A DNA stretch of 30,298 bases from Desulfobacterales bacterium (GTDB taxonomy: Bacteria; Desulfobacterota; Desulfobacteria; Desulfobacterales; JAHEIW01). A program made the position numbers and the translations under genes. A model generated the notes under the pieces. It saw only the letters and a list, made by a program, of their open reading frames with translations, was not told the origin of the DNA and made no database searches. The stretch lies in the NCBI GenBank assembly GCA_020348305.1, contig CP070746.1, positions 2,507,788-2,538,085 on the forward strand, read 5' to 3'. Shown here in pieces: positions 2,242-23,100 of this stretch. Positions within the stretch are counted from its first letter, which is position 1. The number at the start of each line of letters is the position of its first letter.

Positions 2242-2391
2242 GAAACGAAATTGGGACTTTTTCGAAGCAATCAATCATGTTTCGATCATTGAATATTTGA
2301 ATTTGAGATTTATTTGTAATTTGGTTCTTGTAATTTGTAATTTTAAAATGGGCATCATCAATACCTTGTCCTATGGCACGGCCTTTGAATA

Positions 2392-3060
2392 TTAGATCCT
2401 ATGATCTTCACGAACAATAACACGGCATCCGCCGTCAAGGTTCATGCGCCAGTTCTTGGGCTGCTCTATCTTCCTGAGTCTGTCTAACTGGCCGATGCCC
2501 TTCAGCCGCTTATAAATAAGCTGCCAGGCGCATGAAAGGTCAGGTCGGACTTCGCAGCGATCCTCCCGGGAACCGCCGCATGGTCCGTTCAACATGTGCT
2601 TTGCACATCGGGTAATCGGGCAAATACCGCCATATTGATGTAGAACACACGACCCGCAAGCGGCGCATTTTTCGGCCCAAAGTCCCCTTTCTTCGAGTAT
2701 GCCGATAAAGGCCGTGTTTAAGCCGGGATAAACCGGCTTTTCAGCGTAACGTTCGGCAACCGCCTGAACACCGGCTCCGCATCCCAGAGATAGTATCACA
2801 TCATATTTTTCGATAGTTTCAGCAGCTTCTTCAATAAAAACATTGTCACATTGGCGCTCAATGGTAAGTTCGCCAATTTCGAAATCAAGCTCTTGAACAT
2901 TTGATGCGATACGCAATGCCGAAGAAATAATACTCACCTCGCGCTCTCCCCCGGCGAGACATACGGCAACACATGTGCCGCATCCCAGAACCAGGATCCT
3001 TTTGTTTCCTTTTAATATTTCAACAAGTTCAGGTATGCGTTTTCTTTGTGCAACTATCAT
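2392..3060 (-). CDS. metV: MetV-type Cys-rich MTHFR C-terminal-domain protein (small subunit associated with MetF)
   Basis: 222-aa Cys-rich ORF (GCGTCVAVC, CAACGSC, CPITRCAKHMLNGPCGG, CEVRPDLSCAW) positioned between mvhD and metF as in the Moorella thermoacetica hdrCBA-mvhD-metVF cluster. Its start overlaps the mvhD stop by 4 bp (ATGA). Confidence 0.7.
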   Translation of the reverse strand: MIVAQRKRIPELVEILKGNKRILVLGCGTCVAVCLAGGEREVSIISSALRIASNVQELDFEIGELTIERQCDNVFIEEAAETIEKYDVILSLGCGAGVQAVAERYAEKPVYPGLNTAFIGILEERGLWAEKCAACGSCVLHQYGGICPITRCAKHMLNGPCGGSREDRCEVRPDLSCAWQLIYKRLKGIGQLDRLRKIEQPKNWRMNLDGGCRVIVREDHRI

Positions 3061-3509
3061 CTATGGATCTCCTGTTTGACATTTACATGGTCCGACCTCA
3101 CGGGATTGGGTCCCAGCTTGCGAACAGTTTCAATCATGTCTTTAACTGTTTCTGCAAAAACGGTCCCCATGGCAGCTGAGATATTCACCATTCGCAGACG
3201 CTTTCTTTCTAAACCGCTTTCGGACAGAAGTTCACGGGCATAATTTACCCGGCGTTTGGCCATGAGATTGCCTTCGATAAAATGGCAGCTGCCCTCTTCG
3301 CAACCGGCCACAAGAACGCCGTCAGCGCCATATTCAAAAGCCCTCATGAAATATTCAACCTCCAGCTTACCGGTACAGGGAGTACGAATAATTCGGATAT
3401 TCGTCGGATATTGAAGACGCATGGAACCAGCCAGGTCCGCGGCTGCATATGCACAATAATGACAGCAAAAGGCAACAATTTTAGGCTCAAATGGATTTGC
3501 ACGCATCAT
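3057..3509 (-). CDS. mvhD: MvhD/FlpD-like electron-transfer protein, copy 1
   Basis: 150-aa ORF with KIVAFCCHYCAY...TPCTGKLEVEY...GADGVLVAGCEEGSCHFIEGN, the canonical MvhD Cys pattern. It lies immediately downstream of hdrL. Confidence 0.8.
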   Translation of the reverse strand: MMRANPFEPKIVAFCCHYCAYAAADLAGSMRLQYPTNIRIIRTPCTGKLEVEYFMRAFEYGADGVLVAGCEEGSCHFIEGNLMAKRRVNYARELLSESGLERKRLRMVNISAAMGTVFAETVKDMIETVRKLGPNPVRSDHVNVKQEIHR

Positions 3510-3660
3510 TAATATCTTGACTTCCTAGCCCGGACAAACCGGAACCAAAAAGATTCTATTATCACGAAAACACGAAAGGACCCCAGTATGATAGTACCTA
3601 CCTACGGGGCAGGCGAAATCACGAAAAAGAAATATATTTTTTAATTGAGAACCCCGTATC

Positions 3661-3694
3661 CTGACACCTAACACCCGAAATCTGAAATCTTCAA
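3661..3694. repeat. About 34-bp motif copy B (between the hdrL stop and the mvhD start)
   Basis: CTGACACCTAACACCCGAAATCTGAAATCTTCAA, in the same orientation as copy A. Confidence 0.45.
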
Positions 3695-3742
3695 TTTTTT
3701 ACCAACACATTGTAAGTTAACAAGCCCTAAGCGCCTAACATA

Positions 3743-6700: not shown

Positions 6701-8257
6701 AGGGGCTGATTCCCACAAAAGCCTATCCGGCTGGCTTCCAACGGCCAGAATCACCATATCCGCTTCTATCTCAAACTCCGATCGGTCTATTGGCACGGGC
6801 CGCTTTCTTCCGGATTCATCGGGTGTATCCAGTTTCATCCGGATGCATTTTACCCTGTGCAGCCGCCCGTTTTGATTACCGATAAATTCAACCGGAGCGG
6901 TAAGGAACCGAAAATAAATCCCCTCCTCCACGGCATGTTCCACTTCCGCCTTCATGGCCGGCATTTCAGCAGCTGTCCGGCGGTAGACAATGCTGACTTT
7001 TTCAGCACCCAAACGTGCTGCGCAACGGGCGGCATCCATGGCAACATCACCGCCGCCGATCACCACCACATGCCCATTTATGGAGGGTTTATCATTCTCG
7101 GCTACGGCTTTGCGGAGAAAATCCAACCCCTGTTCCACACCGTCAAGATTTTCTCCCTTCACGCCAATGGATGTCCCTTTCTGGGTTCCGATACCAACAA
7201 ATACCGCGCTAAAATCCGCTTGCAAATTTTCAATAGTTATGTCTTTTCCGACACGGCAGTTGTAGACAAGGCTAACGCCTTTGCGACGGATCAGCTCAAC
7301 TTCATAATCAAGAATATTTGCCGGGAGCCTGTATTCAGGAATACCCCAGCGCAGCATCCCGCCCGCTGCCGATGATGCTTCAAATATCGTTACCGCATAC
7401 CCGCGATCCGCGAGATCCTGGGCAGCGGTCAAACCGGAGGGTCCGGCACCGATAATGGCAACTTTTCTGGCATCCACCGCCGGTGTTTTTTCCTTTGGGA
7501 GGGCGATGATACCGGCTTCAACCATTTCCATTTCTTTGTCAGCGGCAAACCGTTTCAACTGTCTGATGGCTACCGCAGAATCAAACCGGCTACGGGTACA
7601 TGCACTTTCGCATGGATGCGTGCATACGCGGCCGCATATGGCTGCCAGGGGATTGCGTTCCCTAATCAGTTTGACCGCCTTGACATACTCTTTTTTCTTT
7701 ATCAGCTGGATATATCCCTGGACATTTATGTTTGCCGGACATGCGATTTTACAGGGTGCATGACCCAACTTGAAAATTTCTGGGACATTGGGTATGGCCT
7801 GCACCGAATGCTTGGCGATTGCCTTGCGGGTTCCCAGACTGCGGTTAAAGCGGTCCTTTATATCAACCGGACAGATCTCGGTGCAGTCACCACAATCATT
7901 GCAAACATGCTCGTCAACATATCGCGGATACTTTTTGATGATTGCTGTAAAATTTCCCGGTTGACCCTCAATCTGAATCAATTCAGATAAGGTATGAATC
8001 TCGATATTCAGATTGCGGTCACACTCGACAAGTTTGGGTGAGACAATGCAGGTTGCACAGTCACCGGTTGGAAAAGTCTTGTCCAGCTGGGACATCATGC
8101 CGCCAATGGAAGCTGAACGTTCGATGATGTAGACCTTGAAACCGGAGTTGGCCAAATCAAGCGAGGCCTGAACCCCTGCAATGCCGCCCCCCTGGACAAG
8201 CACTGCGCCTATTTTTTTATTTCCACCTATTCGCATATCATCTGTATTTTCTGACAC
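3743..8257 (-). CDS. hdrL: HdrL: giant HdrA-like flavoprotein with two tandem HdrA modules and an inserted GltD/NfnB-like NAD(P)H:FAD oxidoreductase domain
   Basis: 1504-aa ORF. N-terminal FAD-binding GAVLVQGGGIAGVQASLDLA with a CxxC cluster. Multiple ferredoxin motifs (CNDCGDCTEICP, CLNCALCSECGACAEAC, CIACMTCVQSCPYG, CMGCGICASECP). An internal GltD-like region (CKIACPANINVQGYIQL; KVAIIGAGPSGLTAAQDL; HVVVIGGGDVAMDAARCAARLG). Two HdrA signature stretches (WIQCVGSRDSRCGNEYCSSICC and MIQCVGSRNKERAYCSRICC). The start is an apparent GTG at 8257; an in-frame ATG 7 codons downstream is an alternative. Confidence 0.85.
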   Translation of the reverse strand: MSENTDDMRIGGNKKIGAVLVQGGGIAGVQASLDLANSGFKVYIIERSASIGGMMSQLDKTFPTGDCATCIVSPKLVECDRNLNIEIHTLSELIQIEGQPGNFTAIIKKYPRYVDEHVCNDCGDCTEICPVDIKDRFNRSLGTRKAIAKHSVQAIPNVPEIFKLGHAPCKIACPANINVQGYIQLIKKKEYVKAVKLIRERNPLAAICGRVCTHPCESACTRSRFDSAVAIRQLKRFAADKEMEMVEAGIIALPKEKTPAVDARKVAIIGAGPSGLTAAQDLADRGYAVTIFEASSAAGGMLRWGIPEYRLPANILDYEVELIRRKGVSLVYNCRVGKDITIENLQADFSAVFVGIGTQKGTSIGVKGENLDGVEQGLDFLRKAVAENDKPSINGHVVVIGGGDVAMDAARCAARLGAEKVSIVYRRTAAEMPAMKAEVEHAVEEGIYFRFLTAPVEFIGNQNGRLHRVKCIRMKLDTPDESGRKRPVPIDRSEFEIEADMVILAVGSQPDRLLWESAPGLPVNTWCNIVADKNGVTDMPGIFAGGDIVTGPATVIAAVAAGKRAAESIDYYLQGKSAAIQRFEDALKSIPENNLPSIQNIENKPRAMAKELPAQERVKAFFEIEKCFSEKDALAETERCLNCALCSECGACAEACEKNAIDHEMAEEIIELDVGSVILAPGFDEFRAEIKAEYGFDRYQNVITSVQFERMLSAAGPFQGHVLRLSDGREARKIAWIQCVGSRDSRCGNEYCSSICCMATTKQAMVAREHVTGLEAAIFYMDIRAFGKDFDPYYERARSMDGIQYMKSMPSRIVEMPGTKDLRLRFVNDNFEFEERDFDLVVLTVGLDPKTSVSQTISRLGIELNEFGFCATDRLYPLETSRPGVFVAGAFQEPKDIPETVTQASAAASVSMELLAGARNTLTARKQYPAEHDVTDEESRIGVFVCHCGMNIASVVDVEKVTAAVCGEPDVVMATHSMFACSDTSLSDIKETIHRHRLNRIVVASCTPRTHEPLFRETLREAGLNPYLFELANIRDQCSWVHSSEPESATSKAIELARMSIARARLLSPLKGESLEINQTGLVIGGGLSGMTAALSLADQGFDVHLVERSGSLGGHLLDIHGTLEHDDISGFTSDLIQRVENHPNIDLHLETEVKAVAGHIGKFNIRLSQKGQQTETPCGAIIVATGAGRAETGEYRYGKSDHVMTQHELADQLHADRFSGAGQNIVMIQCVGSRNKERAYCSRICCSMAIKNALSIKTKAPDANVFVLYRDVRTYGFREKYYQEARRNGVVFIGYSAEKPPVVSEEDGLWVTFDSPDFPETIEIEADKVVLSTGISASEDNTKIADMLKVPLNADGFYVEAHLKLRPIDFAKEGIFVCGLAHSPKFIDENISQARATAARAATVLSRTHLEVGAQICRVDQSKCIACMTCVQSCPYGAPFVNADHKAEIAVANCMGCGICASECPARAIQLNHFEAKHFNVMLDNLLHSLSDAASTQKTETAA

Positions 8258-8285
8258 CTGACACCTGGTAACCTGAAACCTCTGA
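8251..8285. repeat. About 34-bp motif CTGACACCTGACACC..CTGAAACCT (copy A, overlapping the hdrL start codon)
   Basis: CTGACACCTGACACCTGGTAACCTGAAACCTCTGA has a tandem GGTGTCAG x2 on the coding strand. It is about 76% identical to copy B at 3661-3694. Confidence 0.45.
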
Positions 8286-8355
8286 TCTGTCTTCTGTCTT
8301 CTATCCTCTGTCCTCTTTCATCTTTCCTCTGTCATCTGTCATCTGCCTTCTGCCC
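8286..8355 (-). repeat. Polypurine low-complexity intercistronic spacer (coding strand) between hdrB and hdrL
   Basis: The coding strand is about 70 nt of almost pure A/G with reiterated GACAGA / AGAGGA units (CAGATGACAGATGACAGAGGAAAGATGAAAGAGGACAGAGGATAGAAGACAGAAGACAGATCAGAGG). Confidence 0.5.
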
Positions 8356-9228
8356 TCAGACCACTGCACTCACCGCATGAATAACACATGACGGCGATAC
8401 CATCAGCTTTCGCAATCCTAAAGCGTCCATAGAAATGCCCAGGCAAAGACCGAGTAATTGTGAAATATAGACAATCGGCATATCATAATGCCGGCCTTTT
8501 TCGTTGTTAATATCACTTTGTCGCATATCAAGGTTTGCCTGGCACAGGGGACATGCCACGGCGATGCAGTCCGCACCGGCATCTTTGGCCATACCGATGA
8601 TCGAATCAGCCAGATGGACAACGACATCCGTTCTTGTAAGAGCCAGACCGGCACCGCAGCATTCAACCTTGTGGGGCCAGTCGAGGCTTTCCCCGCCCAT
8701 CACGTTGATGAGGCGATCCATGGAAACCGGATTTTCCGGGTTGTCAAACTGGGTAATCTCTTGGGGGCGAACCAGCAGGCAGCCGTAGTAGCATGCCACT
8801 TTAAGTCCGCTTAATGAATGCGTGAATTTATCCTGAAGGAAATCGATTCCGACATCCTCCAGCAGTATTTCTATGAAGTGACGCACATTAACCGAACCGT
8901 CATAATCACGGCCGATGGTTGCACCGATTTGTTTGCGTATTTCGGTATGGTTGACAACTTCATGGTTTGTCATTTTCAGCCGGCTGAAGCATTCGGCACA
9001 GTTGACAACCATATCAAGACCCATCTCCATCGCCAGTATTAGGTTAAAAGCCGGGAGAGATGCGGCTAGGAGCCGATCCGTCTGGTGCGCCGGTGTAGCA
9101 CCGCAGCATGACCATCCATCGGGTTCGATGAGTTCAATACTGAGTCTGCGGGCAACCGCGATACTTGACGAGTGAAGGTCACGTGCGGTCGATTCGGCTG
9201 AACATCCAGGATAATACGCGTATTTCAT
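8356..9228 (-). CDS. hdrB: Heterodisulfide reductase subunit B-like (two CCG domains)
   Basis: 290-aa ORF with two Cys-rich CCG-type motifs (YYPGCS...WSCCGATP...VNCAECF and YYGCLLVRP...VECCGAGL...VACPLCQ). Confidence 0.85.
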   Translation of the reverse strand: MKYAYYPGCSAESTARDLHSSSIAVARRLSIELIEPDGWSCCGATPAHQTDRLLAASLPAFNLILAMEMGLDMVVNCAECFSRLKMTNHEVVNHTEIRKQIGATIGRDYDGSVNVRHFIEILLEDVGIDFLQDKFTHSLSGLKVACYYGCLLVRPQEITQFDNPENPVSMDRLINVMGGESLDWPHKVECCGAGLALTRTDVVVHLADSIIGMAKDAGADCIAVACPLCQANLDMRQSDINNEKGRHYDMPIVYISQLLGLCLGISMDALGLRKLMVSPSCVIHAVSAVV

Positions 9229-9239
9229 TTCCGGATTCC

Positions 9240-9794
9240 TTATTTATGGCTGACGCTGTCGAAAATTCTTTTGACAGTCTTTTTATCTGCCCCCCGGGGT
9301 GGCAAAATAGCGATTTTCCGCTTTTTCAGCATGGATGGAAACTTATCCATGTCATTCATAAACGTTAACGTACCCATTTTATAAGCGGCAATCATGACAA
9401 GATCATATGTACGGCCAAACATGTTCACCGTCTTTAAAAAAGCCCGGTTAAAAAGCGGAATGTCGCCTTTTGGTTTTGCCGCTTGCCTTTTTACTGCAAG
9501 AACCCGCAAGGCATCCATCACCGATGCCATGTCAATGCCCATCGGGCAACGTGCAAAACATGTCTCACATGAGGAACAGATCCATATGATATCACTGCTT
9601 AAGATTTCGTCTCCGGCCCCCAGCTGCAGTCGCCTAATAATTTCAGAAGGTGGGGATTTTGTATGCCCGGATACCGGACAGCCGCAGGAACATTTTTTAC
9701 ATTGATAACATTCGCTGAGATCAACGCCTGCCAGCTCTTCAACAGCACTGATAATATTTTTAACTGCTTTTCCTTTTTTTATCCGAATTGTCAT
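9240..9794 (-). CDS. hdrC: Heterodisulfide reductase subunit C-like (2x[4Fe-4S])
   Basis: 184-aa ORF with CYQCKKCSCGCP and CSSCETCFARCP ferredoxin-type motifs. There is a 34-bp gap to the upstream ORF and an 11-bp gap to hdrB. Confidence 0.8.
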   Translation of the reverse strand: MTIRIKKGKAVKNIISAVEELAGVDLSECYQCKKCSCGCPVSGHTKSPPSEIIRRLQLGAGDEILSSDIIWICSSCETCFARCPMGIDMASVMDALRVLAVKRQAAKPKGDIPLFNRAFLKTVNMFGRTYDLVMIAAYKMGTLTFMNDMDKFPSMLKKRKIAILPPRGADKKTVKRIFDSVSHK

Positions 9795-9828
9795 AGCGGT
9801 TTGGTTACCCTCTTATTCCACTTTCGAA

Positions 9829-12540
9829 TTAAAGAATATCCCCGACGGTTTCCTGCTCTTCAACTTCCACTTTTAAGGCAATGCGCTCTTCTTCTTTCAT
9901 CTCTGCGCCCACACTGGCAGGAACAACTTTTCGATAGACTTTTTCCGGAGGGAGCCTTTCCCCATTCACGGTCAATAGGTCATCGATTGTTATTTGAAAG
10001 AGTCTTTGATTTTCCATCAGATAAGGCAGAATTAATGCCCAGTCCTCCTCGTTCAGCGGCAGAAACATACCGCCGTTTAACTGCTCTTCGATAACATATC
10101 CATCAGGATCGCGTATAAAAATCGCTCCGCCGGAAGCCAGCGAAAACAGGTTGCTGCCCGGATACGGCTCAGACATTGAGACTAAATTGCCGTCATCATC
10201 GAATTGAACACCGTTTAATATAACAAAGCCGCCACCCCTCAGAGGGTCGCCGGCCATAAATGATTCGGCCAAAAAATCAAGACATGTGCCGTTAATAACT
10301 ACCCGTGGTCTGCCAACGGAATTGATCAGCGGCCGGCCGGCGGCATTACCCATTACATAAACCTCCCCCCCCTTGGCGCCGTATAAGAATGTCTGCCCGA
10401 CATCTCCATAAATAACCATTTTTCCGCTTTTGATGATCTGGCCGAGCTGGTCCTGGCCGTTGTTGTGCACCGTGATGGTCAGACCGTCAAGGCCGGAGCC
10501 GAGATAGTCCCCCGAGCTGCCGTACACATCTATGGTCACTTCCTCTGTTTGCGGTCCGAGACCACACCCCACGTATCTCTGGCCTGAACAACCAAAGCAG
10601 ATAAAATTCCGCCATCCTTTGCGATAGGCATCCACCAGGAGTGCTGCATCACATTCATCACCTTCGGGAGGAAACCGATCGGCATTTATAACAAGCGTGG
10701 TTTCTTTTGCCTGCGGGGCCCTTAAGAAGGCACGGGTATTATAATCGATTCGTCGAAACGCACTTTCGTCGCGGTCGTTTGCTTGAATTGAAGGCAGTTT
10801 GTCAAACAAATGATCAAGTTCGCTGCGCACAATATGAAGCATGTGGCTCCGTTTTTTAGTGCCGATAGCGTATCTGAGATCATTTAAAAAGGTCAGGGCA
10901 TTAATCGCCGTTGCAGTGTTCTTCACGTCCTTTGCCCGCTCCCGGATCGTCCTGCAGACCGTCTGAAAATCATCGAAGCCCCATCTGGGAATGTTGTCAC
11001 GCATATACTCAACGAGCGCCTGCCCACCACCTGTTGCATATATATGTTGTATACGCTTGTCAGCACCATTACCCGAGGCGGATGAGACGGATACTTCTTT
11101 TGTAAAATCAAACGATTCGGTCTGCTTGGGCATGGGTACCGGGACCCCGAATTTATCTGTACATGTCATCCGGTAATTTCCGCTGGAATCCTTTTCCAGA
11201 TTGAATATAAATGCTCCGCCATCTGTATGGCTGCCGCCGCGCGCATTCCAGTATCGGTCAGCAACAGGACATATGCGTTTATCTTCCTTGGACAGGCTTA
11301 ACAGGGTTGCATCGATGGCCTGTTTTTCCGATCCAATCAGGCCAACCTGAACCTCTCCTTCTGAAAAGGCAAATACCTGGGGGCGCAGCATTGCTGTGTC
11401 TGTAATTCCCAGAAGCTGGAATCTTTCTTTTCGCGGAATATTACGGGCAATAATAAAAAACCACGGGCCATCCGGCGAACCGTGTATATGTGTGGCTTGT
11501 ACGGCACGATAGACATTTTGTCTTTCTTCGGGGAGACGGTCAAAGTCGAGTTCACTCGTGGGTGCAAGAGCCTCAATAATATATTCCAGTGGATAATGAT
11601 ACGTCCGATCAAGCAGGTCAAACATCAGCGCGGATACCTCTGTGTCGGTAAGAAACTGCGGATATATGTGGCGCTGCCTAAGGTATTCGCAAACAGAATG
11701 ATAATTGGCAAAGTCACCGTTATGGACAAGCGCCATGTTGATGCCTGCAAAAGGATGCGCACCGCCCGGGTGCCAGACCCGGCCCTTGGTGGGAAAACGC
11801 TGATGTCCGAGCCACGCATGTGCACATAGGTCTTCAATCTTGTAATAGGTTACGATCGCCTCTGCATAGCCGACAACTTTCAGGATCATTATGTTTCGCC
11901 CATGGGAGAGGACAAATGCCCTCTGTTCGCCCAAGGAGGCGTAATATTCCTGATTCAGCCCAAAGCTGTTCTGGTTTACAAACTCATCTTCCGCCTCACG
12001 CCGTGGGAACTTTTCCAATTCATTTTGCGTTATGAAGGCATCGAGCAATTCCGGCTTGACACGAACAAAATAACGCCAAACATTCGGCGGTTTAACTTCA
12101 AGGCCCTTGACTGATTTCCAGTCGTCAACGGTATCTAATTCACTGGAAGCGGCCACATCAAAATTGCGTGTAATAAATTTATCTTCAAGTTCTTCCCGGA
12201 CCTCACGGTCAAGAAAGGCGATGTGAAGCATATAGTATTCATCCAAGATCTCACGGCTGACACCGAGTTGATCCGGGATAAACCCGACAGCTGCAACTCC
12301 GCCGCCCTTGCCATTACCCCTGTTGTGCATCAATCTTGATGGCTCATAAATGTGACGACCGGATACAGGTTCTGTGCAGCAAAAGCCAACAACACCGCAA
12401 CCGCCTTCTTCCTCGCTCTTTGACACCGTCACCGGAAACTTTAAACCATCAACTCGGCGTTTTTTGGAATTCAATAATTTTTGTATGAAATCCCTATGCA
12501 TTGTTTGCTTCACAACATCAGTGTAGTTAGCATGCTTCAA
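9829..12540 (-). CDS. Archaeal-type glutamate synthase fusion protein: class-II glutamine amidotransferase domain plus C-terminal GXGXG domain
   Basis: 903-aa ORF. The Ntn-type amidotransferase signature GGCGVVGF lies about 45 residues from the N-terminus, implying a propeptide. The C-terminal region GDYLGSGLDGLTITVHNNGQDQLGQ...GDVGQTFLYGAKGGEVYVMGNAAGRPLINSVGRPRVVINGTCLDFLAESFMAGDP matches the glutamate-synthase alpha-subunit GXGXG domain. No FMN-binding or central domain is present. Confidence 0.75.
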   Translation of the reverse strand: MKHANYTDVVKQTMHRDFIQKLLNSKKRRVDGLKFPVTVSKSEEEGGCGVVGFCCTEPVSGRHIYEPSRLMHNRGNGKGGGVAAVGFIPDQLGVSREILDEYYMLHIAFLDREVREELEDKFITRNFDVAASSELDTVDDWKSVKGLEVKPPNVWRYFVRVKPELLDAFITQNELEKFPRREAEDEFVNQNSFGLNQEYYASLGEQRAFVLSHGRNIMILKVVGYAEAIVTYYKIEDLCAHAWLGHQRFPTKGRVWHPGGAHPFAGINMALVHNGDFANYHSVCEYLRQRHIYPQFLTDTEVSALMFDLLDRTYHYPLEYIIEALAPTSELDFDRLPEERQNVYRAVQATHIHGSPDGPWFFIIARNIPRKERFQLLGITDTAMLRPQVFAFSEGEVQVGLIGSEKQAIDATLLSLSKEDKRICPVADRYWNARGGSHTDGGAFIFNLEKDSSGNYRMTCTDKFGVPVPMPKQTESFDFTKEVSVSSASGNGADKRIQHIYATGGGQALVEYMRDNIPRWGFDDFQTVCRTIRERAKDVKNTATAINALTFLNDLRYAIGTKKRSHMLHIVRSELDHLFDKLPSIQANDRDESAFRRIDYNTRAFLRAPQAKETTLVINADRFPPEGDECDAALLVDAYRKGWRNFICFGCSGQRYVGCGLGPQTEEVTIDVYGSSGDYLGSGLDGLTITVHNNGQDQLGQIIKSGKMVIYGDVGQTFLYGAKGGEVYVMGNAAGRPLINSVGRPRVVINGTCLDFLAESFMAGDPLRGGGFVILNGVQFDDDGNLVSMSEPYPGSNLFSLASGGAIFIRDPDGYVIEEQLNGGMFLPLNEEDWALILPYLMENQRLFQITIDDLLTVNGERLPPEKVYRKVVPASVGAEMKEEERIALKVEVEEQETVGDIL

Positions 12541-12610
12541 CCTGGCCGCACAAACCGTACCTCAAATAGCAAAAAAATTAGCATAAAAAAAGGGGTGGCC
12601 ATAATAAAAT

Positions 12611-12705
12611 TATCTGGTTATCTACAATAGCCAAGTGAGCATAATAATATAAAAGATTATCTTACGTTTAAAAAAGCCTACTTGGTCTTTCTGGATAACC
12701 AGATA
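12611..12705. promoter_or_regulatory. Pair of 12-bp inverted-repeat boxes in the divergent gltS-like/lrp promoter region
   Basis: TATCTGGTTATC at 12611-12622 and its exact reverse complement GATAACCAGATA at 12694-12705, 71 bp apart, in the AT-rich 282-bp divergent intergenic region. Confidence 0.4.
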
Positions 12706-12822
12706 GAATTAATTAATAAATATCGCAAATTCTTTTACAAATGTCAAGATTTCAATAAAATATCTTTACATTTATAAAAATTTTTTTTATATTCAGTTAT
12801 ATATTAGAAAGGAGGAGTAACG

Positions 12823-13263
12823 GTGAACGAAGTGGAACTAAAGATTATTAGAGCGCTTAACGAGAATTCCAGAAAAAGCTTTCGCGAAATAGCCAAGGAG
12901 GTCAAGACGTCTACTCCTGTGGTGATCAATAAAATTAAAAAGCTCGAAGAAATAGGTGCCATAAAGGGCTATATTCCTGTATTGGACCCGGAATACTTCG
13001 GCTATACCCTCATGGCCGTGGTTGCCTTGCGCATTTCTCATGGGAAGCTTATTGAAGCACAGGAAAAGATCGCAGAAGATCCGCATACGCTGGCTATTTA
13101 TGATGTGACCGGAGAGTGGGATTCCATAGTAATTGCCCATTTTAAAGGAAGGAAAGATTTGAACAATTTTATCAAGAATATTCTTGTCCATAACAATGTA
13201 GATAGAACAGTGACCCATATCGTACTCAATGTCGTCAAGGACGAACGCAGACTCGTCGTCTGA
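12823..13263 (+). CDS. lrp: Lrp/AsnC-family transcriptional regulator
   Basis: 146-aa ORF with a GTG start preceded by AAAGGAGGAG. The N-terminus has an HTH (IIRALNENSRKSFREIAKEVKTSTPVVINKIKKLEE) and the C-terminus an AsnC-type ligand-binding (RAM) domain. Confidence 0.85.
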   Translation: MNEVELKIIRALNENSRKSFREIAKEVKTSTPVVINKIKKLEEIGAIKGYIPVLDPEYFGYTLMAVVALRISHGKLIEAQEKIAEDPHTLAIYDVTGEWDSIVIAHFKGRKDLNNFIKNILVHNNVDRTVTHIVLNVVKDERRLVV

Positions 13264-13468
13264 TATTTCCATTCCCACATTCACCAAGCATCGGTAATAA
13301 CGATTAAATTATGGGGTTGGGTGAAGCACTGATTGCCCGATGAAATGAATACATTTTTGTCATTTTTTTAATTTAAAAATACAAAATTGTAACTTACTGT
13401 TTTTATTCAAAGCTACGGCCAAACTTTAACGCATTGAATTTATTAATATTTCTGAGCTGTATCACTGA

Positions 13469-13484
13469 TGGCATACCTGTTGCA
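13469..13484 (+). promoter_or_regulatory. Sigma-54 (-24/-12) promoter upstream of the P-II-like gene
   Basis: TGGCAT-ACCTG-TTGCA has exact consensus spacing (GG to GC = 12 nt). It lies about 140 bp upstream of the 13623 start, in a nitrogen-assimilation context with a sigma-54 activator gene nearby. Confidence 0.5.
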
Positions 13485-13622
13485 GAATACCATCCCATTT
13501 ATTTGTCTTCTTGCCCGATAGATAAATATTGACCACAGGCTGGCACGAGTCCATTTACTTAAATTATTAGCTGTACAATCTTTCAGGTTTTTACGACTGA
13601 GTAACAGAGGAGGAATTTATTA

Positions 13623-13967
13623 ATGAAATTGGTCGTAGCGATGATTCAGCCCCATAAATTGACTGATGTCAAGCAGGCATTATTTGACGAAGAGGTCTAT
13701 GCCATGACGGTCAGCAATGCCTTGGGATGTGGCAGCACGATGGGGTATATGGAAACCTACAGAGGTGTGAGGCAAGAAGTAAATCTTCTGAAAAAAGTGC
13801 GACTTGAAATTGCCGTCAATGATGATTTCGTTGAACGCATCATTGAGGCAATTATAAAAGGCGCACGAACGGGTAACATGGGAGAATGCCATATCCCAAA
13901 TTGCAAGAGAAAACCTCGAAGGGAGTTTGAGCGGAGTTTTGGCCACATTATCGCCGGAAGAAGCTAA
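13623..13967 (+). pseudogene. P-II (GlnB-like) signal-transduction protein, C-terminally truncated and running out of frame into a flotillin fragment
   Basis: The first roughly 85 aa align with P-II ([20 protein letters not shown]...TYRG...[30 protein letters not shown]). After TG the canonical B-loop/C-terminus (GDGKIFV...RIRTGE) is replaced by [26 protein letters not shown], which is the flotillin reading frame read out of frame. A GGAGG RBS and a sigma-54 promoter lie upstream. Confidence 0.6.
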
Positions 13968-14784
13968 CAGTAATCGGTTGGAGTTTGCCGAAAAAATCGT
14001 ACAACAGACCAGAGGTGATCTCGGTCGCCTGGGTTTAGTGCTGGATACGTTTAAAATCAAACATCTCTCTGATAATGAAGGCTATCTGGATGCCATCGGT
14101 CGCAAGAAAAATGCTGAAGTCAGAAAGGATGTCGAAATCGCGGAAACCAATGCGCAAGCTGAATCAAGACAAGTGTCCGCCGAGGCCAAGCGTATCGGAA
14201 ATGTGGCCGAAGCGGAGGCCAACGTAACCATTGTCGAAGCCGAAAACAAGCTACGGATAAAAAAAGCGGACCTGGATGCCGAAGCCCAACGCATAGAAGC
14301 CAAAGCAAAGGTTGCCGGCAACATCGCCAGGGTCGAAGAAGAACAGAAACTGGAAACCCAAAGAGTTGCCTTGAATCAGAGTAAGTATGAGGCTGACGTC
14401 GTGGTGCCGGCTCGGGCAGAAAAAGAAGCCATGGAATTGAAAGCCATTGGCGACGCATCCACTATCGTAGAAAACGGCAAAGCGACAGCAGAAGCAGTGA
14501 ATCTGATGCGTCAGGAATGGGAAAAAGAAGATACCCGGGAGCTTTTCTTAATCCAGCAACTTCCGGATATCCTCGATAAAGTCACCAGTGTGGTTTCCGA
14601 AAATCTTGCCATCGAAAAGGTTACGATACTGGACAGCGGCAACGGGCAGGGCATGCCCACCTATGTCAAAGGCATTGCCGGTTCTATCGTTGCTATTTTC
14701 GAGCAGATTAAAAACGCCACCGGCCTGGATGTACCTGAAATCCTGAGAGCCAAAGGAAAATCCACGGCTGAAATTACCGGATAG
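13858..14784 (+). pseudogene. Flotillin (FloT/YuaG-like SPFH family) lacking about the N-terminal 130 aa (TM segment plus first half of the SPFH domain)
   Basis: Frame 1 is open from 13858. The translation ...[83 protein letters not shown]... aligns with the middle of B. subtilis FloT (EAREVLEGHLRSILGSMTVEEIY...[37 protein letters not shown]). It is followed by an EA-rich coiled-coil and a C-terminal ...ILDSGNGQG... tail. There is no ATG; the track used TTG at 13927. Confidence 0.65.
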
Positions 14785-14798
14785 AAAGGGAATCGAAC

Positions 14799-16130
14799 AT
14801 GCTGAAGCTGAAATCAAAAAAGGATGTCCTAAAAGTTGTTAAGGACCAGGATGTAAGTTTTATTCAAATCTGGTTCACGGATATTTTGGGAATTTTAAAA
14901 TCATTTGCCATCACGCCTTCTGAACTGGAGGGTGCTCTCACCGAAGGCATGGGATTTGACGGCTCTTCGATTGAAGGGTTTGCCCGCATCGAAGAAAGTG
15001 ACATGATCGCCATGCCGGATCCTACGACATTTCAGTTTCTACCCTGGCGCCCCAAGGATCGCCCGGTGGCCCGCATGTTCTGCGATATTCTGACACCGGA
15101 TGGCTCCCACTATGCCGGTGATCCACGCTATGTATTTAAGCGGGCGCTTCAAAAGGCGGCTGATAAAGGCTACAAATTTTTCATCGGACCTGAACTGGAA
15201 TTTTTCTATTTTGAAAGCAGTGAAAATCCAAAATTTATTGATATGGGAGGCTATTTTGATTCACGACCGCTTGATCTGGCCAGTGACTTGCGCAGAGACA
15301 CGATATTTATGCTCCAGCGCATGGGGATCCAGGTTGAATACAGCCACCATGAGGTGGCACCCAGCCAGCATGAAATCGATTTGCGATTTGATGAAGGTCT
15401 TAAAATGGCGGATAAGACCATGACCTATCGCGTGGTTGTCAAAGAGGTTGCCCGCAAACAAGGCGTCTATGCCACCTTTATGCCCAAGCCCATCTTCGGA
15501 GAAAACGGCAGTGGCATGCATGTTCACCAATCGCTTTTTCGCGGTGATATGAACGCCTTTTATGATCCATCAGATAAATACCATTTATCCGAAATGGCCA
15601 AATCCTATATTGCCGGCATCATGCGACACGCGCGGGAAATTGTCGGGGTTACCAATCAATGGGTGAACTCTTACAAGCGTCTGGTGCCAGGCTATGAAGC
15701 GCCCGTATATATCTCCTGGGCGCGGCGCAACCGCTCGACAATGATACGGGTACCCATGTACAAGCCCGGCAAGGAAGTTGCCACTCGCATTGAGTTTCGT
15801 TCACCGGATCCGGCCTGCAATCCTTATCTGGCTTTTGCAGTTATGCTGATGGCCGGTTTAAAAGGAGTTGAACAGAACTACGCGCTGCCGGATCCGATCG
15901 AAGAGGATATTTACGAGATGGATGAAGCGGCAAGGGAAAAGGCTGGCATTGTTTCGTTGCCGGGAAGTCTTTTTGAAGCCATTCAGGAGCTGGAACAAAG
16001 CGAGGTGGTTCGAGAAACCCTTGGGGACCACATCTTCCAGCAATTCATTGCCAACAAGAAAATCGAATGGAACCGCTTCCGAACGCACGTCAGCAGGTAC
16101 GAGATCGAAAACTATCTTCCCAAGCTTTAA
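14799..16130 (+). CDS. glnA: Glutamine synthetase type I-alpha (443 aa)
   Basis: Canonical GS motifs: [51 protein letters not shown]...EFRSPDPACNPYLAF. It has no adenylylation-loop insertion. Confidence 0.9.
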   Translation: MLKLKSKKDVLKVVKDQDVSFIQIWFTDILGILKSFAITPSELEGALTEGMGFDGSSIEGFARIEESDMIAMPDPTTFQFLPWRPKDRPVARMFCDILTPDGSHYAGDPRYVFKRALQKAADKGYKFFIGPELEFFYFESSENPKFIDMGGYFDSRPLDLASDLRRDTIFMLQRMGIQVEYSHHEVAPSQHEIDLRFDEGLKMADKTMTYRVVVKEVARKQGVYATFMPKPIFGENGSGMHVHQSLFRGDMNAFYDPSDKYHLSEMAKSYIAGIMRHAREIVGVTNQWVNSYKRLVPGYEAPVYISWARRNRSTMIRVPMYKPGKEVATRIEFRSPDPACNPYLAFAVMLMAGLKGVEQNYALPDPIEEDIYEMDEAAREKAGIVSLPGSLFEAIQELEQSEVVRETLGDHIFQQFIANKKIEWNRFRTHVSRYEIENYLPKL

Positions 16131-16343
16131 AAAGGAGACGATATCACTGGCCTTGGAATTATTCGCCCAGAATAAATTCTCGCCGGGCACTACCGGCGAC
16201 GGCCTTTTCTTCGATTGATATAAAGTGATATTTTCATGGGCGTCCATTTCGTATCTCTCGTGTTTTTCTTATTAAAATCAATCTATCGGATAATTTCGTT
16301 GCTTTTTTTAGGAAAACTTTTTAGGAGTGACATTTCATATTGA

Positions 16344-16712
<369 letters not shown>

Positions 16713-16769
16713 AATATAAAACATTTAGATACTTTTTCAAGAAAAGAAAATAATAGGGAGGAAAAACGT

Positions 16770-18182
16770 ATGACACCCAAAGAAGTCTTAGATATGGCTA
16801 AGGAAAACGGAGCCAAGGTGGTTGACTTGCGCTTTATGGATTTTCCGGGCGTCTGGCAGCACTTTAGTGTGCCGATCAACGAATTGGATGAATCGAGTTT
16901 TGAAGATGGGTATGGGTTTGACGGTTCCAGTATTCGTGGCTGGCAGCCGATTCACGCCAGCGATATGCTGGTAGTCCCCGATGCGGATACCGCCAAAATG
17001 GACCCATTTTATGAAGCGCCAACGCTGGTGTTAATCGGCAACATCGTTGATCCGGTAACCCGGGAGCCTTACACCCGGGACCCGAGAAATATTGCTCAAA
17101 AAGCCGAAGCCTATCTAAAAAGCACGGGTATTGGTGATATCGCATATTTCGGCCCTGAGCCCGAATTTTTCATCTTTGACGACATTCGCTTTGAGTCCAC
17201 CCGGTTTGGCGCCTTTTATGAAATTGACTCCATTGAAGGGGTCTGGAACTCCGGTCGTGAGGAAATGCCCAACCTGGGCTATAAACCGCGACACAAAGAA
17301 GGATATTTCCCGGTTCCACCCATGGACAAGTTTCAGGATCTGAGAACGGAGATGGTTTTGACCTTGGAAAATCTGGGGATCGCAACCGAAGCCCAGCATC
17401 ATGAAGTCGCCACCGCCGGCCAGGCAGAAATCGATATGCGTTTTATGCCGCTGCTCCAGATGGCCGATCAACTCATGTGGTTCAAATATGTGCTTAAAAA
17501 TGTCGCCTATCGCAATAACCATACAGTGACCTTCATGCCCAAACCGATTTTCGAAGACAACGGAACCGGCATGCACACCCATATCAGCATTTGGAAAGAA
17601 GACCAGCCGCTGTTTGCCGGCGATAAATATGCCGGTCTTTCCCAGGAGGCATTGTATGCCATCGGCGGCATTTTAACCCACTGCAAGGCGCTATGCGCCT
17701 TTACCAACCCGACCACCAATTCCTATAAACGATTGGTGCCGGGTTTTGAAGCACCGGTGAACTTGGCCTACTCCAGCCGCAACCGCAGTGCGGCGATTCG
17801 AATCCCAATGTATTCCCCGTCACCGAAAACAAAACGCATTGAGTTCCGCACCCCGGATCCTTCCTGCAACGGCTATTTAGCATTTTCAGCCATGCTGATG
17901 GCGGTCATCGATGGTATCCGGAACAAGATCGATCCCGGCGATCCCCTGGATAAAAACATTTACAACCTGCCGCCCGAAGAACTGGCTGAAATTCCATCGG
18001 CGCCCGGTTCCTTGGAAGAGGCGCTGGCCTCTTTAAAAGATGACCAGGAATTCCTTTTAAAAGGCGATGTCTTTACCTCGGATGCCATCGATATGTGGAT
18101 CGAATACAAAATCGAAAATGAGGTCAACGACGTCAAATTGCGACCCCACCCGCATGAGTTCTTTCTGTATTTTGATATTTAA
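16770..18182 (+). CDS. glnA: Glutamine synthetase type I-beta (470 aa) with adenylylation-site motif
   Basis: GS motifs [65 protein letters not shown], plus a NIYNLPPEE adenylylation-type Tyr segment. The RBS is GGGAGG. Confidence 0.9.
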
Positions 18183-18241: not shown

Positions 18242-19307
18242 GGGACGTTGTTGACTGAATTGACTTAGTTTCTCGCCCGTTTTATGATCTTTGATATGGC
18301 CGAGGTGGAAACGCCCAGTCGCCGAGCAACTTCGGCTAAAGCAACCCCTTGGTTCTTTACCAACCCAATCGCAATCCGAGCTCGAATCCCTGATACCTCT
18401 TTGCGCCGGCTGCCGGATCTTAATTCTTCAATTGATACTTTTCCATTTTTGCACAATTTGGCTATCAATTCATCAATTTTTTGATGATGCTCCTTCACCG
18501 GCAGTTGATATTTGATTTGGCTTTCAGCTTCTTTTATGACCCGCTTGACAAATTCACCACTGCCTAAAATCCGCTCATCACTCAACTCGCGATCTGCTGA
18601 GCGGCGCAACGCTTTCACCGCCGACCAACCACCCAAGGACCGTATTAATCCCCCACCAACAAGGTCCGGGCGACGCCCTTCATTTATTCCCTTTTGAACA
18701 TATTTGCGATAAGCTTTTTTAGCCTCGGCCTGCTTGGGCCCAAACCATTTCAATACATAGTCTCGATTCTGCCAGTCATTTTTAACGCGACCCATTAAAA
18801 CGCTGTGACCACACCAGCGGTAGCGGTCTAATTGTGCTAAAGTTTTAACTAATTTAGCCCGCAAAGGATTTAAATGGATATATCGTACCAATTCTTTAAA
18901 ATAGGCATCTTCTTCACAGATAATCGACTTATAGCGGTTTTGAAATAAATGACCCCAGCGTCGATGACGCCGATTGTAAAAAATCGCATAGCCCGTCAGC
19001 AACCGTCGCATAAATCCCGAAAGCCCATACTCAGAGCTGCGTAAAAGAATGTGCGCATGATTGCTCATCAGTGCCCAGGCATATATGGCGGTTTTGGTAC
19101 CTACGGCAAGCTTTGCCAAGCGCCTTACAAAATCTTTTCGATCCGTCACATCATTGACAATTTTGCCTCTTTCTATTCCTCGTACCATCACATGATGCAA
19201 TGTTCCAGGGGCATCCAATCTGGCTCGCCGCGGCATCTTCCCCCTCCTCCTTTAAAATTCTAACCATTTGCATAACATAAATTAGTCAACTCAGTCAACA
19301 ACGTCCC
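18242..19307 (-). mobile_element. Compact IS-like/REPtron-like element: Y1 transposase gene bracketed by about 26-bp imperfect inverted repeats
   Basis: Left repeat 18242-18268 is GGGACGTTGTTGACTGAATTGACTTAG. The reverse complement of 19282-19307 is GGGACGTTGTTGACTGAGTTGACTAA (24/26 identical). Each repeat contains a tandem TTGACT-N3-TTGACT. The left repeat overlaps the transposase stop codon. Confidence 0.55.
18265..19236 (-). CDS. Y1 HUH transposase (IS200-like/RAYT-like) with C-terminal HTH (DnaA-C-like) domain
   Basis: 323-aa ORF with a HUH motif (ALMSNHAHILL) and a catalytic Tyr context (GHLFQNRYKS), typical of the IS200/IS605 TnpA and REP-associated tyrosine transposase superfamily. 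The C-terminal ...LVKNQGVALAEVARRLGVSTSAISKIIKRA is an HTH. Confidence 0.75.
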   Translation of the reverse strand: MPRRARLDAPGTLHHVMVRGIERGKIVNDVTDRKDFVRRLAKLAVGTKTAIYAWALMSNHAHILLRSSEYGLSGFMRRLLTGYAIFYNRRHRRWGHLFQNRYKSIICEEDAYFKELVRYIHLNPLRAKLVKTLAQLDRYRWCGHSVLMGRVKNDWQNRDYVLKWFGPKQAEAKKAYRKYVQKGINEGRRPDLVGGGLIRSLGGWSAVKALRRSADRELSDERILGSGEFVKRVIKEAESQIKYQLPVKEHHQKIDELIAKLCKNGKVSIEELRSGSRRKEVSGIRARIAIGLVKNQGVALAEVARRLGVSTSAISKIIKRARN

Positions 19308-20169: not shown

Positions 20170-23100
20170 CTAGGGATTATGAAAAGCTGAAAATATCTTC
20201 GCTGCAAACTTCTTAGCTTGCCACTTAAACTTTTTCCATTTCGACCACTTGTCATAATCATTTGGCTCTTTCATAAAATCTGGATCATTAGGATCATTTG
20301 AGGGATAACTCCAACCAGGCATTCCTGGTGCATCCCATAAGGGACCATATTCATCTCCCATTCCTCTAGATTCATATGCTGGGCAGGCACTACTGTCCTC
20401 ACCACGAGCCATCAAGATATCGAATAGAATATCTTCAGCCTCATCCTCACTGGGGATATAAGGAATATCAGGTAAATTTACGTCAGGAAGATCAGCACCA
20501 GTTGCGTACCCTAAAGCTCCTATAAGTAGCGGTGCACCATATAAAAATGCTCGAAGAGCAGCCTGTCCTCCAAAAAGCCCTCTTGGATCAACCGCATTAA
20601 TTGGATCATTTAAACAATACCCATAAAGATCCGTATCACCTCCAGCAAAAAAAATAGGATCTTTGGCGGTCCATCGCCCTGTGTCGGGATCATAGTCGCG
20701 GAAACCAAACCTAACTAGGCCTGTATCCCGGTCGTCAAGCCCTCCTGCAAATCCAAAAGGCACCTCAATTGTCGGATTGGTATCATTTATTATATTGCCA
20801 AATGAATCATACTCAATTAATTCTACCACATTGCCGGAAGCATCTGCAACAACCCGCAACGAGCCCACCTGGTCATAAGTAAGAAAATAGGTTGTCCCAC
20901 CGCTTTTCATAGCCACCGGCATGCGATCATCAGCATACTCGAAGCGCATCAGTAGATTATTAGAACCATCATAGACGGCCAGCAGACGCGTTAGACCCTC
21001 CCACAGGTATTTCTCGACAACAACTCCATCTACCTTCTTGGCGATTCGTCTTCCCAGTGGATCATGGAGATATTCGATAACGCGACCATCGGACAAATCA
21101 ACGCTTAGTAGCTCTCCACGAGAAGAATATTTATAGTTGGTCACGTCATCTCCATCTTTCTTAGTAGTTAAAAAGCCGTCTAGATTATAAGAATAGCTCA
21201 TAGATCCAGCCGATAAGAGATGATCCCCAGCCGAATAACTAAAGCTCCTTACAGAAAATCCTCTCAGCGTGTTTGTTTCAGAGATTCGTGTTCCACTGAG
21301 ATCATAGCCATACGCTTCAACTAAATTACCGTCTTTGGTTACAGTCAAGAGTCTTCCCATGGAGTCATATGTATAAGCATAATTTGTGGTAACACTACCA
21401 ACCGTCTCGGTTTTGTTTATGATTCTTCCGTTATCATCGCGGGTTAATATCCACGTGGTTACATTTTGGCTACCAACCGTAAAGTTCTGCCCTTCCACCT
21501 CACCGTAACCATTGAATGCGCGAGAAAGACTCAACGCACCGCCGGTAACCGCTTCAGGCAATCCATTCTGAGTATTACGAGAAATTGAATAGGAACCTGC
21601 AGCGGTTAATAGCCCGTCATTATCATAATCATAACTAACGGTGCCTCCCGCATAGGTAAAACTGGAAACATCAAAGTCGTTATTGTAGGTGTAATTTAAT
21701 GATTGATTCAACGTGCCGCTCAACATCTCCAGTGTGACCAGCTTTCCATCATAGCCGTAAGTAATTGATTCGGTGTCTTTTGTGATTGATTCAACTTTTG
21801 TTCCACACAGATAGGTAAAATCAATGTTGCCTTCCGGTGTCTGAATTTGAGAAAGTCTAGTCTTGTCCCAGATGTTGAATATCTGTTTGCCGGAAGGGAA
21901 GTTTGTCTGGATCAAACGCCTGTCCTTATCATACACATAACTGTAACTCCCGCTCAATGGCGTCGTATAAGCGCGATATAGATTGACGCTGTTAAATCCA
22001 AAACCGTGGTTGATATCCACCGGATTAGTCAACACCGTCATATTGCCGTTTTTGTCATAAGTAAATCCCACATAGCCATCGTCCGGGCGGCTTATCCCGG
22101 TTATCCGCCCAACCGGATCATAGCTGTAAGTTGTGGTGTAATTCTCTGGATTGGTGATGGATTCAGGAAATCCCTGTGCATTATAAGCAAATGTGGTTTG
22201 CCTGGCATTGGTGCTGATGGAGGTCAACCTTCCCCTTGAATCGTAGCCATATGCTGTGGAATGAAGGCCAGGCACGCTAACACTTTCGACTAGCAAAGTA
22301 GCAGGATCGTAAAGCGATGTTATTGACCTACCCTCAGGTGAAGTGACTAATTTCCGCGCCTGAAGGGTATTATGTTCAAGTGTCGTGGTTTTGCCATTGA
22401 TCGTTACCGTCTCTGTGATCATGTCCGGTGCTTCATCAGCGTCCGTATCTTGATAAGCCTTATCCCTCAGCGTCACCCATTCTAGTCCTGAAGGGGCACT
22501 TTCTCTCATTTCTTTGACGTATTTATACTTATACTCATAATCCACATCGTATTTGAATTCAAGCTCCATTCCACAGGGCAAGGACTTATTTACGGTTAAT
22601 CCATCTGCTGATTGAGTAAATAATGTTTGAGCTCCCGTGGGATCTGTTATGGTTGAGCTGTAGGCACCGGTGGAATCTGTGCGGTCCAGATAGGAATTAA
22701 GGTTGCCCTCCGCTGTTAGAACCTGGATTAATATATCTCCATTCTCATTTACAATTCTGTTGTAATTCCAATGACCTCCTTCCTCGTCATATACGTCAAT
22801 CAATCCACTGTATTCGAAGCGGTTGCCTTCGGGTTCCACCTTTGCAGTTATCAGACCACCCTCGGCATACTCAAAAGTGTAGTAACTGTCATCGGGATAC
22901 GTGATCCAGGTAAGGTGATTGTTTGCATCAATTGTCAAACTGGTATAAATTCCATCCGGAGAAATGATTGAGGTCGGCGAACCGCTACTATCCCTGGAAA
23001 TGATGGTTTGGTTGCCGAATCGGTCGGTAATCGAAGCCAATCTTCCATCCGAGTCATATCCAAAATCATAAAGGGTTACCCCGGTATCAAGGTCAATGGT

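Follow-up and report, generated by a model that had tools for sequence, protein, structure and literature searches.

The DNA described here is a stretch of 30,298 nucleotides from contig CP070746.1 of a Desulfobacterales bacterium, treated as one 30-kb window. Its operon region runs in the order Lrp, P-II, flotillin, glnA1, amt remnant, P-II2 and glnA2, and our subject is the place where the first P-II gene, which is cut short, meets a flotillin gene that has lost its beginning. The open reading frame (ORF) of this P-II gene, located at 13623-13967 on the forward strand, encodes 114 amino acids. Its match to the Pfam P-II profile covers only positions 1-87 of 102 (E=5e-18), and every alignment of the ORF to 38 solved P-II structures ends at residue 89-91. 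The P-II core (residues 1-87, beta-alpha-beta with the T-loop) is present and 92-99% identical to intact orthologues. What is missing from a complete P-II domain of about 112 amino acids is the GDGK end of the B-loop, strand beta-4 and the C-terminal segment.

The +1 frame is open from 13858, after a TAA at 13855-13857, to a TAG at 14782-14784. It matches positions 78-176 of 176 of the Band_7/SPFH profile in Pfam, together with the beginning of the Flot domain. Residues 123-421 of the flotillin are colinear with intact orthologues at 85-88% amino acid identity, and the coiled-coil flotillin domain and the C-terminal region are present. This remnant has no ATG, no usable ribosome-binding site, no N-terminal hydrophobic anchor and no first half of the SPFH domain. 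The hydrophobic N-terminus that it lacks is MIGIWVATAVIAALILLAF in the intact flotillin of L047, a White Oak River metagenome contig (WOR8_10000802) that was used as the reference for the breakpoints. A preliminary description of this DNA had already reported a flotillin fragment without ATG, transmembrane segment and SPFH N-terminus, as well as a distance of 14 bp to glnA. Both observations were upheld, the former by the start-codon survey, the partial Band_7 match and the beginning of the remnant at codon 123, the latter by a gap of 14 nt between the flotillin stop (14784) and the glnA1 ATG (14799). The same description had the P-II similarity end at about 13875, the flotillin begin at 13858 in another frame and the P-II ORF read about 25 codons of flotillin sequence out of frame. 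The loss, the change of frame and the out-of-frame tail are all real, but their limits had to be redrawn. Base 13885, the second of P-II codon 88, is the last with P-II homology and at the same time the first with true flotillin homology, at codon 123 of 421. The 27 nt at 13858-13884 are P-II DNA that happens to be open in the flotillin frame, and the tail has 26 codons.

In relatives both genes are whole. When the 88 P-II residues served as query in a homology search, thousands of P-II proteins of 112-113 amino acids came back, along with one 114-amino-acid protein with the aberrant tail of the window. The suggestion that the gene might be a conserved short P-II variant thus fails, as relatives encode the full-length protein of 112-113 amino acids instead. 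Contigs of an intact relative (P0003, two loci) carry P-II (112 amino acids), Band_7/flotillin (421 amino acids), glnA (443 amino acids), amt, P-II and glnA. With the flotillin fragment as query, 14 genome loci, most of them in metagenome-assembled genomes (MAGs) of Desulfobacterales/Desulfobacteraceae, and 39 metagenome loci were found. The order P-II, full-length flotillin (412-421 amino acids) and glnA was present in every locus whose contig extends far enough. The intact cluster occurs in the two P0003 loci, 12 species genomes and about 35 metagenome loci; amt stands either 3' of glnA or 5' of P-II. The cluster loci, more than 40 in number, are L002, L004-L014, L016, L019-L050, L052, L054 and L056, from Desulfobacterales-like (sulfate-reducer-like) sediment bacteria, with a sigma-54 promoter. 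L047 shares the entire neighbourhood with the window (GltB-like gene, Lrp, P-II, flotillin, glnA1, amt, P-II2 and glnA2) at about 92-94% nucleotide identity. No intact relative nearer than L047 (about 92% nucleotide identity) emerged when metagenomes and genomes were scanned. The loss of an intervening gene, such as an NfeD partner, had also been considered. However, P-II and flotillin are separated in relatives by a spacer of only 33-105 bp, with no gene between them at any relative locus inspected. No NfeD-like gene was found beside flotillin among more than 50 related loci either, where the constant neighbours are P-II, glnA and amt. In this the cluster differs from the NfeD-SPFH operons, with which it shares an SPFH-family gene within an operon.

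Window and L047 are colinear as far as L047 position 4523 (window 13885), and the match continues from L047 5001 (window 13885). The 478 bp absent in between comprise 76 nt of P-II (from what remains of codon 88 to the stop), the 35-nt spacer with the ribosome-binding site of flotillin, and 367 nt of flotillin (codons 1-122 and one base). In protein terms, the deletion took P-II codons 88-112 and flotillin codons 1-122 of 421. Since 478 equals 1 modulo 3, the P-II frame clashes with the flotillin frame. The two halves in the window are 92-99% identical at the nucleotide level to the matching parts of the intact genes in the relative, and chance therefore cannot account for the junction. Alignment of the breakpoints with both L047 sides showed 1 nt of microhomology and no flanking repeats in register, which points to an illegitimate (non-homologous) deletion. 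Slippage between short direct repeats was considered and rejected, as the breakpoints offer only an out-of-register AACAT and the single microhomology base. The comparison of syntenic loci proposed beforehand thus identified the lost material, and a deletion of the P-II 3' end and the flotillin 5' end, as originally suspected, was borne out. We regard it as highly probable that the P-II/flotillin junction is a vertically inherited deletion scar, and we count the deletion, its breakpoints, its inheritance and a further scar in amt as established from the sequences compared.

The junction was found in six assemblies, namely the window MAG, L001 and L062-L065. L001, a Logan assembly (SRR31444222), spans 13060-14077 ungapped with 4 single-nucleotide polymorphisms (SNPs) in 1018 bp. 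L062-L065 come from four JGI metagenomes and were retrieved by exact look-up of the P-II2 protein; their identity is about 94-95% with the window and 99.3-99.9% among themselves. An NCBI MAG protein (UCE56096.1, Desulfobacterales bacterium), encoded on a contig of 6,969,660 bp, is identical to the 114-amino-acid ORF. This protein and the Logan copy came from the homology search and cluster listing, whereas exact-protein look-ups of the 114-amino-acid ORF, a 285-amino-acid ORF starting at TTG 13927 and glnA1 gave no match. L062-L065 have a C>A change by which the first codon read out of frame becomes TGA, and this leaves a P-II ORF of 88 amino acids. Their tail thus has 0 codons compared with 26 in the window, so the tail is not conserved. 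With an identical junction in five further assemblies from two sublineages about 5% apart, the scar is, as far as the sequences tell, fixed in a clade of at least two sublineages. GenBank annotates the 114-amino-acid ORF as a 'P-II family nitrogen regulator', and JGI annotates an 88-amino-acid P-II and a 285-amino-acid Band_7 protein; these entries should be corrected. The features of the operon region are listed in Table 1.

Table 1. Features of the operon region in the window, with the evidence for each.
Feature	Position	Strand	Evidence
Lrp/AsnC-family regulator, intact, upstream neighbour of the operon	12823..13263	+	Pfam AsnC_trans_reg and HTH_24; 95% amino acid identity to the syntenic L047 gene
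Sigma-54 type -24/-12 element, TGGCAT-N5-TTGCA	13469..13484	+	139 nt 5' of the P-II ATG; sole exact match in the window
P-II (GlnK-like) remnant, codons 1-87 and 2 bases of codon 88	13623..13885	+	Pfam P-II 1-87/102; 99% nucleotide identity to L047 P-II
Deletion junction GGGAGA/ATGCC (slash marks the join), A13885 being the single microhomology base	13885..13886	+	478 bp absent relative to L047 4524-5001
Tail of the P-II ORF, flotillin DNA read out of frame over 26 codons, ending with TAA	13886..13967	+	Translation
Flotillin remnant, codons 123-421 and stop	13885..14784	+	Band_7 78-176/176; tblastn to L002 flotillin residues 123-421
glnA1, type I glutamine synthetase, 443 amino acids, intact	14799..16130	+	Pfam Gln-synt_N and Gln-synt_C; TIGR00653 541 bits; dN/dS 0.036 against L047
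Second deletion junction GATATCA/CTGGCC (slash marks the join)	16146..16147	+	About 1095 bp absent; breakpoint alignment with L047 7262/8358
amt remnant, 67 bp, about codons 366-388	16147..16213	+	95.5% nucleotide identity to L047 8358-8424; tblastn to Amt residues 367-389, E=5e-5
68-bp filler without L047 counterpart, in place of the amt 3' end and downstream spacer	16214..16281	+	Comparison with L047
Second P-II gene (P-II2), canonical GlnB/GlnK type, intact	16374..16712	+	Pfam P-II 1-102/102, E=3e-35; NCBIfam 167 and 158 bits, under the curated cutoffs
glnA2, glutamine synthetase, 470 amino acids, intact	16770..18182	+	TIGR00653 657 bits

The same operon carries a second scar. Relatives have amt (about 457 amino acids) between glnA1 and P-II2, where the window has just 243 bp (16131-16373). 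The left breakpoint coincides exactly with the amt start codon, from which about 1095 bp are missing, through approximately codon 365. The 3' part of amt is also gone, with 68 unmatched bases in its place. The amt scar has an identical junction in nine assemblies (window, L062-L068 and L070). A 14-nt indel (16247-16260) and dense substitutions separate the filler of the window from that of L062-L066, which is consistent with unconstrained sequence. The clade has thus lost Amt, the GlnK-like P-II and flotillin from this operon and has kept glnA1, P-II2 and glnA2, which are strongly constrained, with ratios of nonsynonymous to synonymous substitution rates (dN/dS, or omega) of 0.04-0.08 against L047.

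Another lineage, represented by L051 and L015 (81% identical to each other), has an NtrC-type activator gene and a sigma-54 promoter followed by remnants. At L051 588-1892, flotillin from about residue 172 onward follows amt residues 31-319 in a direct fusion, and the flotillin remnant contains an in-frame stop. At L015 3029-4293 the amt part is reduced further, and a 3' fragment of flotillin stands directly before glnA. Both loci lack P-II and have an intact glnA downstream. Judged by these remnants, the L015/L051 lineage has lost amt, P-II and the 5' end of flotillin independently and has retained glnA.

The GDGK part of the P-II B-loop and the C-terminal arginines bind ATP/ADP, and the region lost here is needed for the fold and for nucleotide binding. 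Because this region includes those residues, the truncated P-II, without its last beta-strand and C-terminal segment, is probably non-functional. The omega of the P-II remnant is about 0.2-0.27 in deletion-bearing lineages compared with 0.01-0.04 among intact lineages. In the flotillin frame, the start-codon survey found no ATG in the first 100 codons, and the TTG and GTG codons there have no usable Shine-Dalgarno spacing. The TTG at 13927, put forward earlier as a start, did not hold up: a GGAG ends only 1 nt before it and is ordinary coding sequence for the conserved LEGSL, present in intact genes as well. Without start codon and anchor and with half an SPFH domain, the flotillin fragment is probably untranslated or useless.

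Post-deletion polymorphisms, taken within L062-L065 and between the window and L001 (small counts in each case), comprise 8 nonsynonymous and 4 synonymous changes in the flotillin remnant. They fit neutrality (p=0.29) and reject an omega of 0.1 (p=0.003). They are 4.2 times as dense as in the intact neighbours (p=0.003). In private changes at positions conserved to 95% or more, the flotillin of the window ranks first with 7, compared with 0-5 in 38 homologues. In a test for relaxed selection on segments that we call native, where the window resembles L047, the two differ by 5 nonsynonymous and 13 synonymous changes, numbers that do not discriminate.

Several observations weigh against two dead remnants left by one inherited deletion. 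The polymorphism counts just given are small. The dN/dS of the flotillin remnant between the window and L062-L065, all of which carry the deletion, is 0.09-0.10 and looks like purifying selection, and no stop or frameshift occurs over 299 codons in any of the six copies. Three differences between the window and the L062-L065 sublineage lie within 12 nt right of the junction (13886-13897), and recombination with an intact donor cannot explain them; two of the three substitutions match the state in distant relatives.

A rival proposal is that the flotillin remnant is alive, with its C-terminal 285-299 residues made from TTG 13927 or by re-initiation after the P-II ORF, and kept as a soluble scaffold or as a translated leader against polarity on glnA1. 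The six open frames belong to two sublineages, and dN/dS is still about 0.1-0.17 in the native first 80 codons. The TTG and the AAGGGAG preceding it are conserved, the gene callers of the four JGI assemblies give a Band_7 protein of 285 amino acids, and L015 likewise retains its flotillin fragment next to glnA. However, the GGAG within that motif has an ordinary coding explanation, as described above, the in-frame stop of L051 interrupts the fragment in the relative of L015, and the remnant is without the membrane anchor, the feature that defines flotillin function. The recent changes (8:4, four times denser than in neighbours) also speak against it, and the low dN/dS coincides with a dS about 7 times that of the flanks and with mosaic identity, so that the sequence appears mostly imported and shaped in its donors. 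We consider a living remnant improbable.

This mosaic was seen in several comparisons. The dS of the remnant between the window and L062 is 0.75, compared with 0.05-0.11 in flanking genes (about 7-fold). Compared with its two closest lineages, segment 14125-14904 of the window, which takes in the 3' part of flotillin and the beginning of glnA1, has a dS of 0.68-0.75, and the flanking genes have 0.05-0.28. In sliding identity, the window, L062 and L047 are alike over 13885-14124; the 240 nt right of the junction are native (92-97% identical to L047). At 14125-14304 the window alone is L002/L004-like, at 14305-14484 and 14605-14784 all three differ, and at 14485-14604 the window and L047 are alike. 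The three form a reticulate near-trichotomy. Homologous recombination seems to have a local hot spot at 14125-14904, overlapping the pseudogene. We infer that recombination with lineages that have intact flotillin repeatedly overwrote the remnant, and such patches would explain both its low deep omega and its open frame.

Imported DNA might also have created the deletion itself, by homology-facilitated illegitimate recombination as foreign flotillin-glnA DNA was taken up, or spread it later by allele transfer between diverged strains. This is a variant of a deletion scar and does not exclude it. The patchwork in the flotillin 3' part and at the flotillin-glnA1 boundary, closest to different lineages in different segments, would suit it, as would the reticulate near-trichotomy and a junction with only 1 nt of microhomology. 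The native 240 nt right of the junction are not foreign, though, no donor was identified, and the differences within 12 nt of the junction argue against recent allele transfer. A role of imported DNA in making or spreading the scar therefore seems to us unlikely.

The preliminary description had named an assembly artefact as its alternative, which could be a chimeric join or a collapsed region in one MAG, or a frameshift error that conceals a longer ORF. The window does come from a metagenome-assembled genome, and a 23-nt string across the junction was not found in JGI metagenome contigs; the miss arises because the JGI copies carry SNPs beside the junction. Against this, the identical junction in five other assemblies, from other samples and pipelines (Logan, JGI) and between 4 SNPs per kb and 5% diverged, speaks for a real arrangement in two sublineages. 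In addition, what is absent is 478 bp and not a single base, and synteny is colinear on both sides. To the extent that assemblies can tell, an artefact is thus virtually excluded. Equally negligible is a programmed +1 frameshift or deliberate fusion giving a P-II(1-88)-flotillin(123-421) hybrid: the frames overlap over 110 nt (13858-13967), anywhere in which a +1 shift would join them, but the TGA at the junction in L062-L065 shuts the P-II frame and leaves no overlap right of it, 0 of more than 50 related loci are fused, neither a slippery motif nor a conserved structure was found (nothing in Rfam), and the breakpoints cut both proteins in the middle of a folded domain.

We return to the deletion scar and its setting. 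The pattern TGGCAY-N5-TTGCW has one exact match in the 30-kb window (13469-13484), with 0.12 expected by chance. An equivalent sigma-54 element lies 5' of P-II in the 14 relatives that have P-II as the first gene, and it is absent directly 5' of P-II where amt precedes. A promoter and terminator scan found no terminator-like or sigma-70-like site on the forward strand between the P-II start and glnA1. In Rfam, region 12500-17000 gave one sub-threshold chance match only, with no glutamine riboswitch or other RNA element. Given the element in relatives and the lack of an internal site, glnA1 was, and presumably still is, transcribed from it. The sigma-54 promoter had been described as now reading through into glnA as a result of the deletion. 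The reading into glnA agrees with the element found, while its novelty does not agree with the relatives, in which the layout is the same; read-through into glnA1 from this putative promoter is presumably ancestral. Should the flotillin fragment not be translated, glnA1 would now be preceded by about 830 nt of untranslated RNA, which could expose the transcript to Rho-dependent polarity.

The history that best explains these data is the following. The ancestor would have had a sigma-54-dependent nitrogen operon of P-II (GlnK-like, 112 amino acids), flotillin (421 amino acids), glnA1 and amt. One non-homologous deletion of 478 bp took away P-II codons 88-112 together with the 35-bp spacer and flotillin codons 1-122, and the P-II frame has since continued out of frame in flotillin DNA. 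From the conserved sigma-54 promoter, transcription presumably still passes both remnants into intact glnA1 as before the deletion. Nearly all of amt was lost in the same clade, and the entire ammonium-uptake part of the operon (Amt, the GlnK-type P-II and flotillin) has thus been discarded and glutamine synthetase kept. In the window clade, separate deletions destroyed P-II with flotillin on one side and amt on the other, and glnA1 in the middle is intact. The losses of P-II, flotillin and amt may have been linked.

By this evidence the two genes are most probably a pair of ordinary pseudogene remnants, and the event is of a well-known kind. As parts that define the P-II and flotillin families are missing, neither remnant belongs to their functional members. 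Like other deletion-generated pseudogenes, they show a non-homologous deletion with 0-1 nt of microhomology, out-of-frame remnants, intact orthologues in close relatives, and a second scar in the same operon. The recent polymorphisms suggest relaxed constraint, and the deep omega of about 0.1 is confounded by the recombination patches. They differ in lying inside an operon that is presumably still used, between the promoter and an essential-looking glnA1. They differ also in that the remnant appears partly overwritten by recombination with intact alleles and looks healthy, with an open frame and a low deep dN/dS. The case is a cautionary one, as a pseudogene remnant may keep an open frame and a low dN/dS through recombination with intact alleles. 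As routine pseudogenisation the scar itself matters little, and the cluster seen in more than 50 loci is a by-product worth following.

In this cluster, the intact orthologues of the truncated gene are P-II proteins of 112-113 amino acids (PF00543) and resemble the GlnK-AmtB pair, in which the P-II protein plugs the ammonium channel, as encoded by glnK-amtB in E. coli. In the P-II clade, the gene stands directly 3' of amt in L010, L013, L016, L026, L028-L046 and L058-L061, and P-II and amt share one operon in L002, L005 and L047. As distant members of the clade lie directly 3' of amt, the protein is of GlnK type. Unlike that pair, the clade has the T-loop GCGNTMGYTETYRGV instead of GRQKGHTELYRGAEY, scores about 100 bits with the NCBIfam GlnB/GlnK equivalogs (cutoffs 181-202) and has a flotillin gene 3' of P-II in Desulfobacterales; in the window, moreover, P-II is cut off after residue 87. 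At L061 1747-2068, on an Omnitrophica MAG contig, a 75-amino-acid P-II fragment followed by a 50-amino-acid ORF lies 5' of amt and an intact P-II, and it may be another broken P-II gene.

The intact flotillin of L047 (421 amino acids) matches flotillin-1 end to end over residues 27-417 (PDB 9l3g_A and 9bq2_B, E=2e-37). It has a hydrophobic N-terminus and Band_7 and Flot domains (PF01145 and PF15975) like eukaryotic flotillin-1/2 and bacterial FloT/FloA, which are membrane scaffolds of the SPFH family, and by these matches it is a bona fide flotillin. It differs from them in not being a FloT equivalog (181 bits, cutoff 700) and in its place in a nitrogen operon, and the window keeps residues 123-421 alone, with neither anchor nor start codon.

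In the library searched, nothing relevant linked flotillin with P-II, GlnK, Amt or glnA, and the conserved P-II-flotillin-glutamine synthetase-Amt cluster appears to be undescribed. It suggests an unexplored link of membrane-microdomain scaffolds with P-II/Amt nitrogen signalling, for which the scarred clade offers a natural loss-of-module comparison. The two losses of Amt, P-II and flotillin with glnA kept are compatible with one module, as a hypothesis only. Tentatively, and with more doubt than confidence, we suggest that the Desulfobacterales flotillin is a working part of ammonium uptake and sensing, a membrane scaffold with the unusual GlnK-type P-II and Amt that is under sigma-54 control beside type I glutamine synthetase, and that the window clade is a natural knockout of this module.

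Some further observations concern the surroundings. L047 8628-9264 contains about 640 bp extra between amt and P-II2 that are absent in other relatives, with an apparent ORF on the reverse strand. Adjoining glnA2, an ORF of 323 amino acids (window 18265-19236, reverse strand) encodes an IS200-like Y1 transposase domain; L062 and L063 have this ORF too. Its nearest match is to REP-associated tyrosine transposases, with a score of 61 bits under a cutoff of 80. Farther downstream, at window 20170-27039, is an ORF of 2289 amino acids. Upstream of the operon, the reverse strand of window 744-12540 encodes MTHFR, two MvhD/FlpD-like proteins, a 1504-amino-acid HdrA-like flavoprotein/iron-sulfur fusion, CCG-domain and 4Fe-4S proteins and a 903-amino-acid GXGXG/GATase glutamate-synthase-like protein, a gene set typical of anaerobic Desulfobacterota metabolism.

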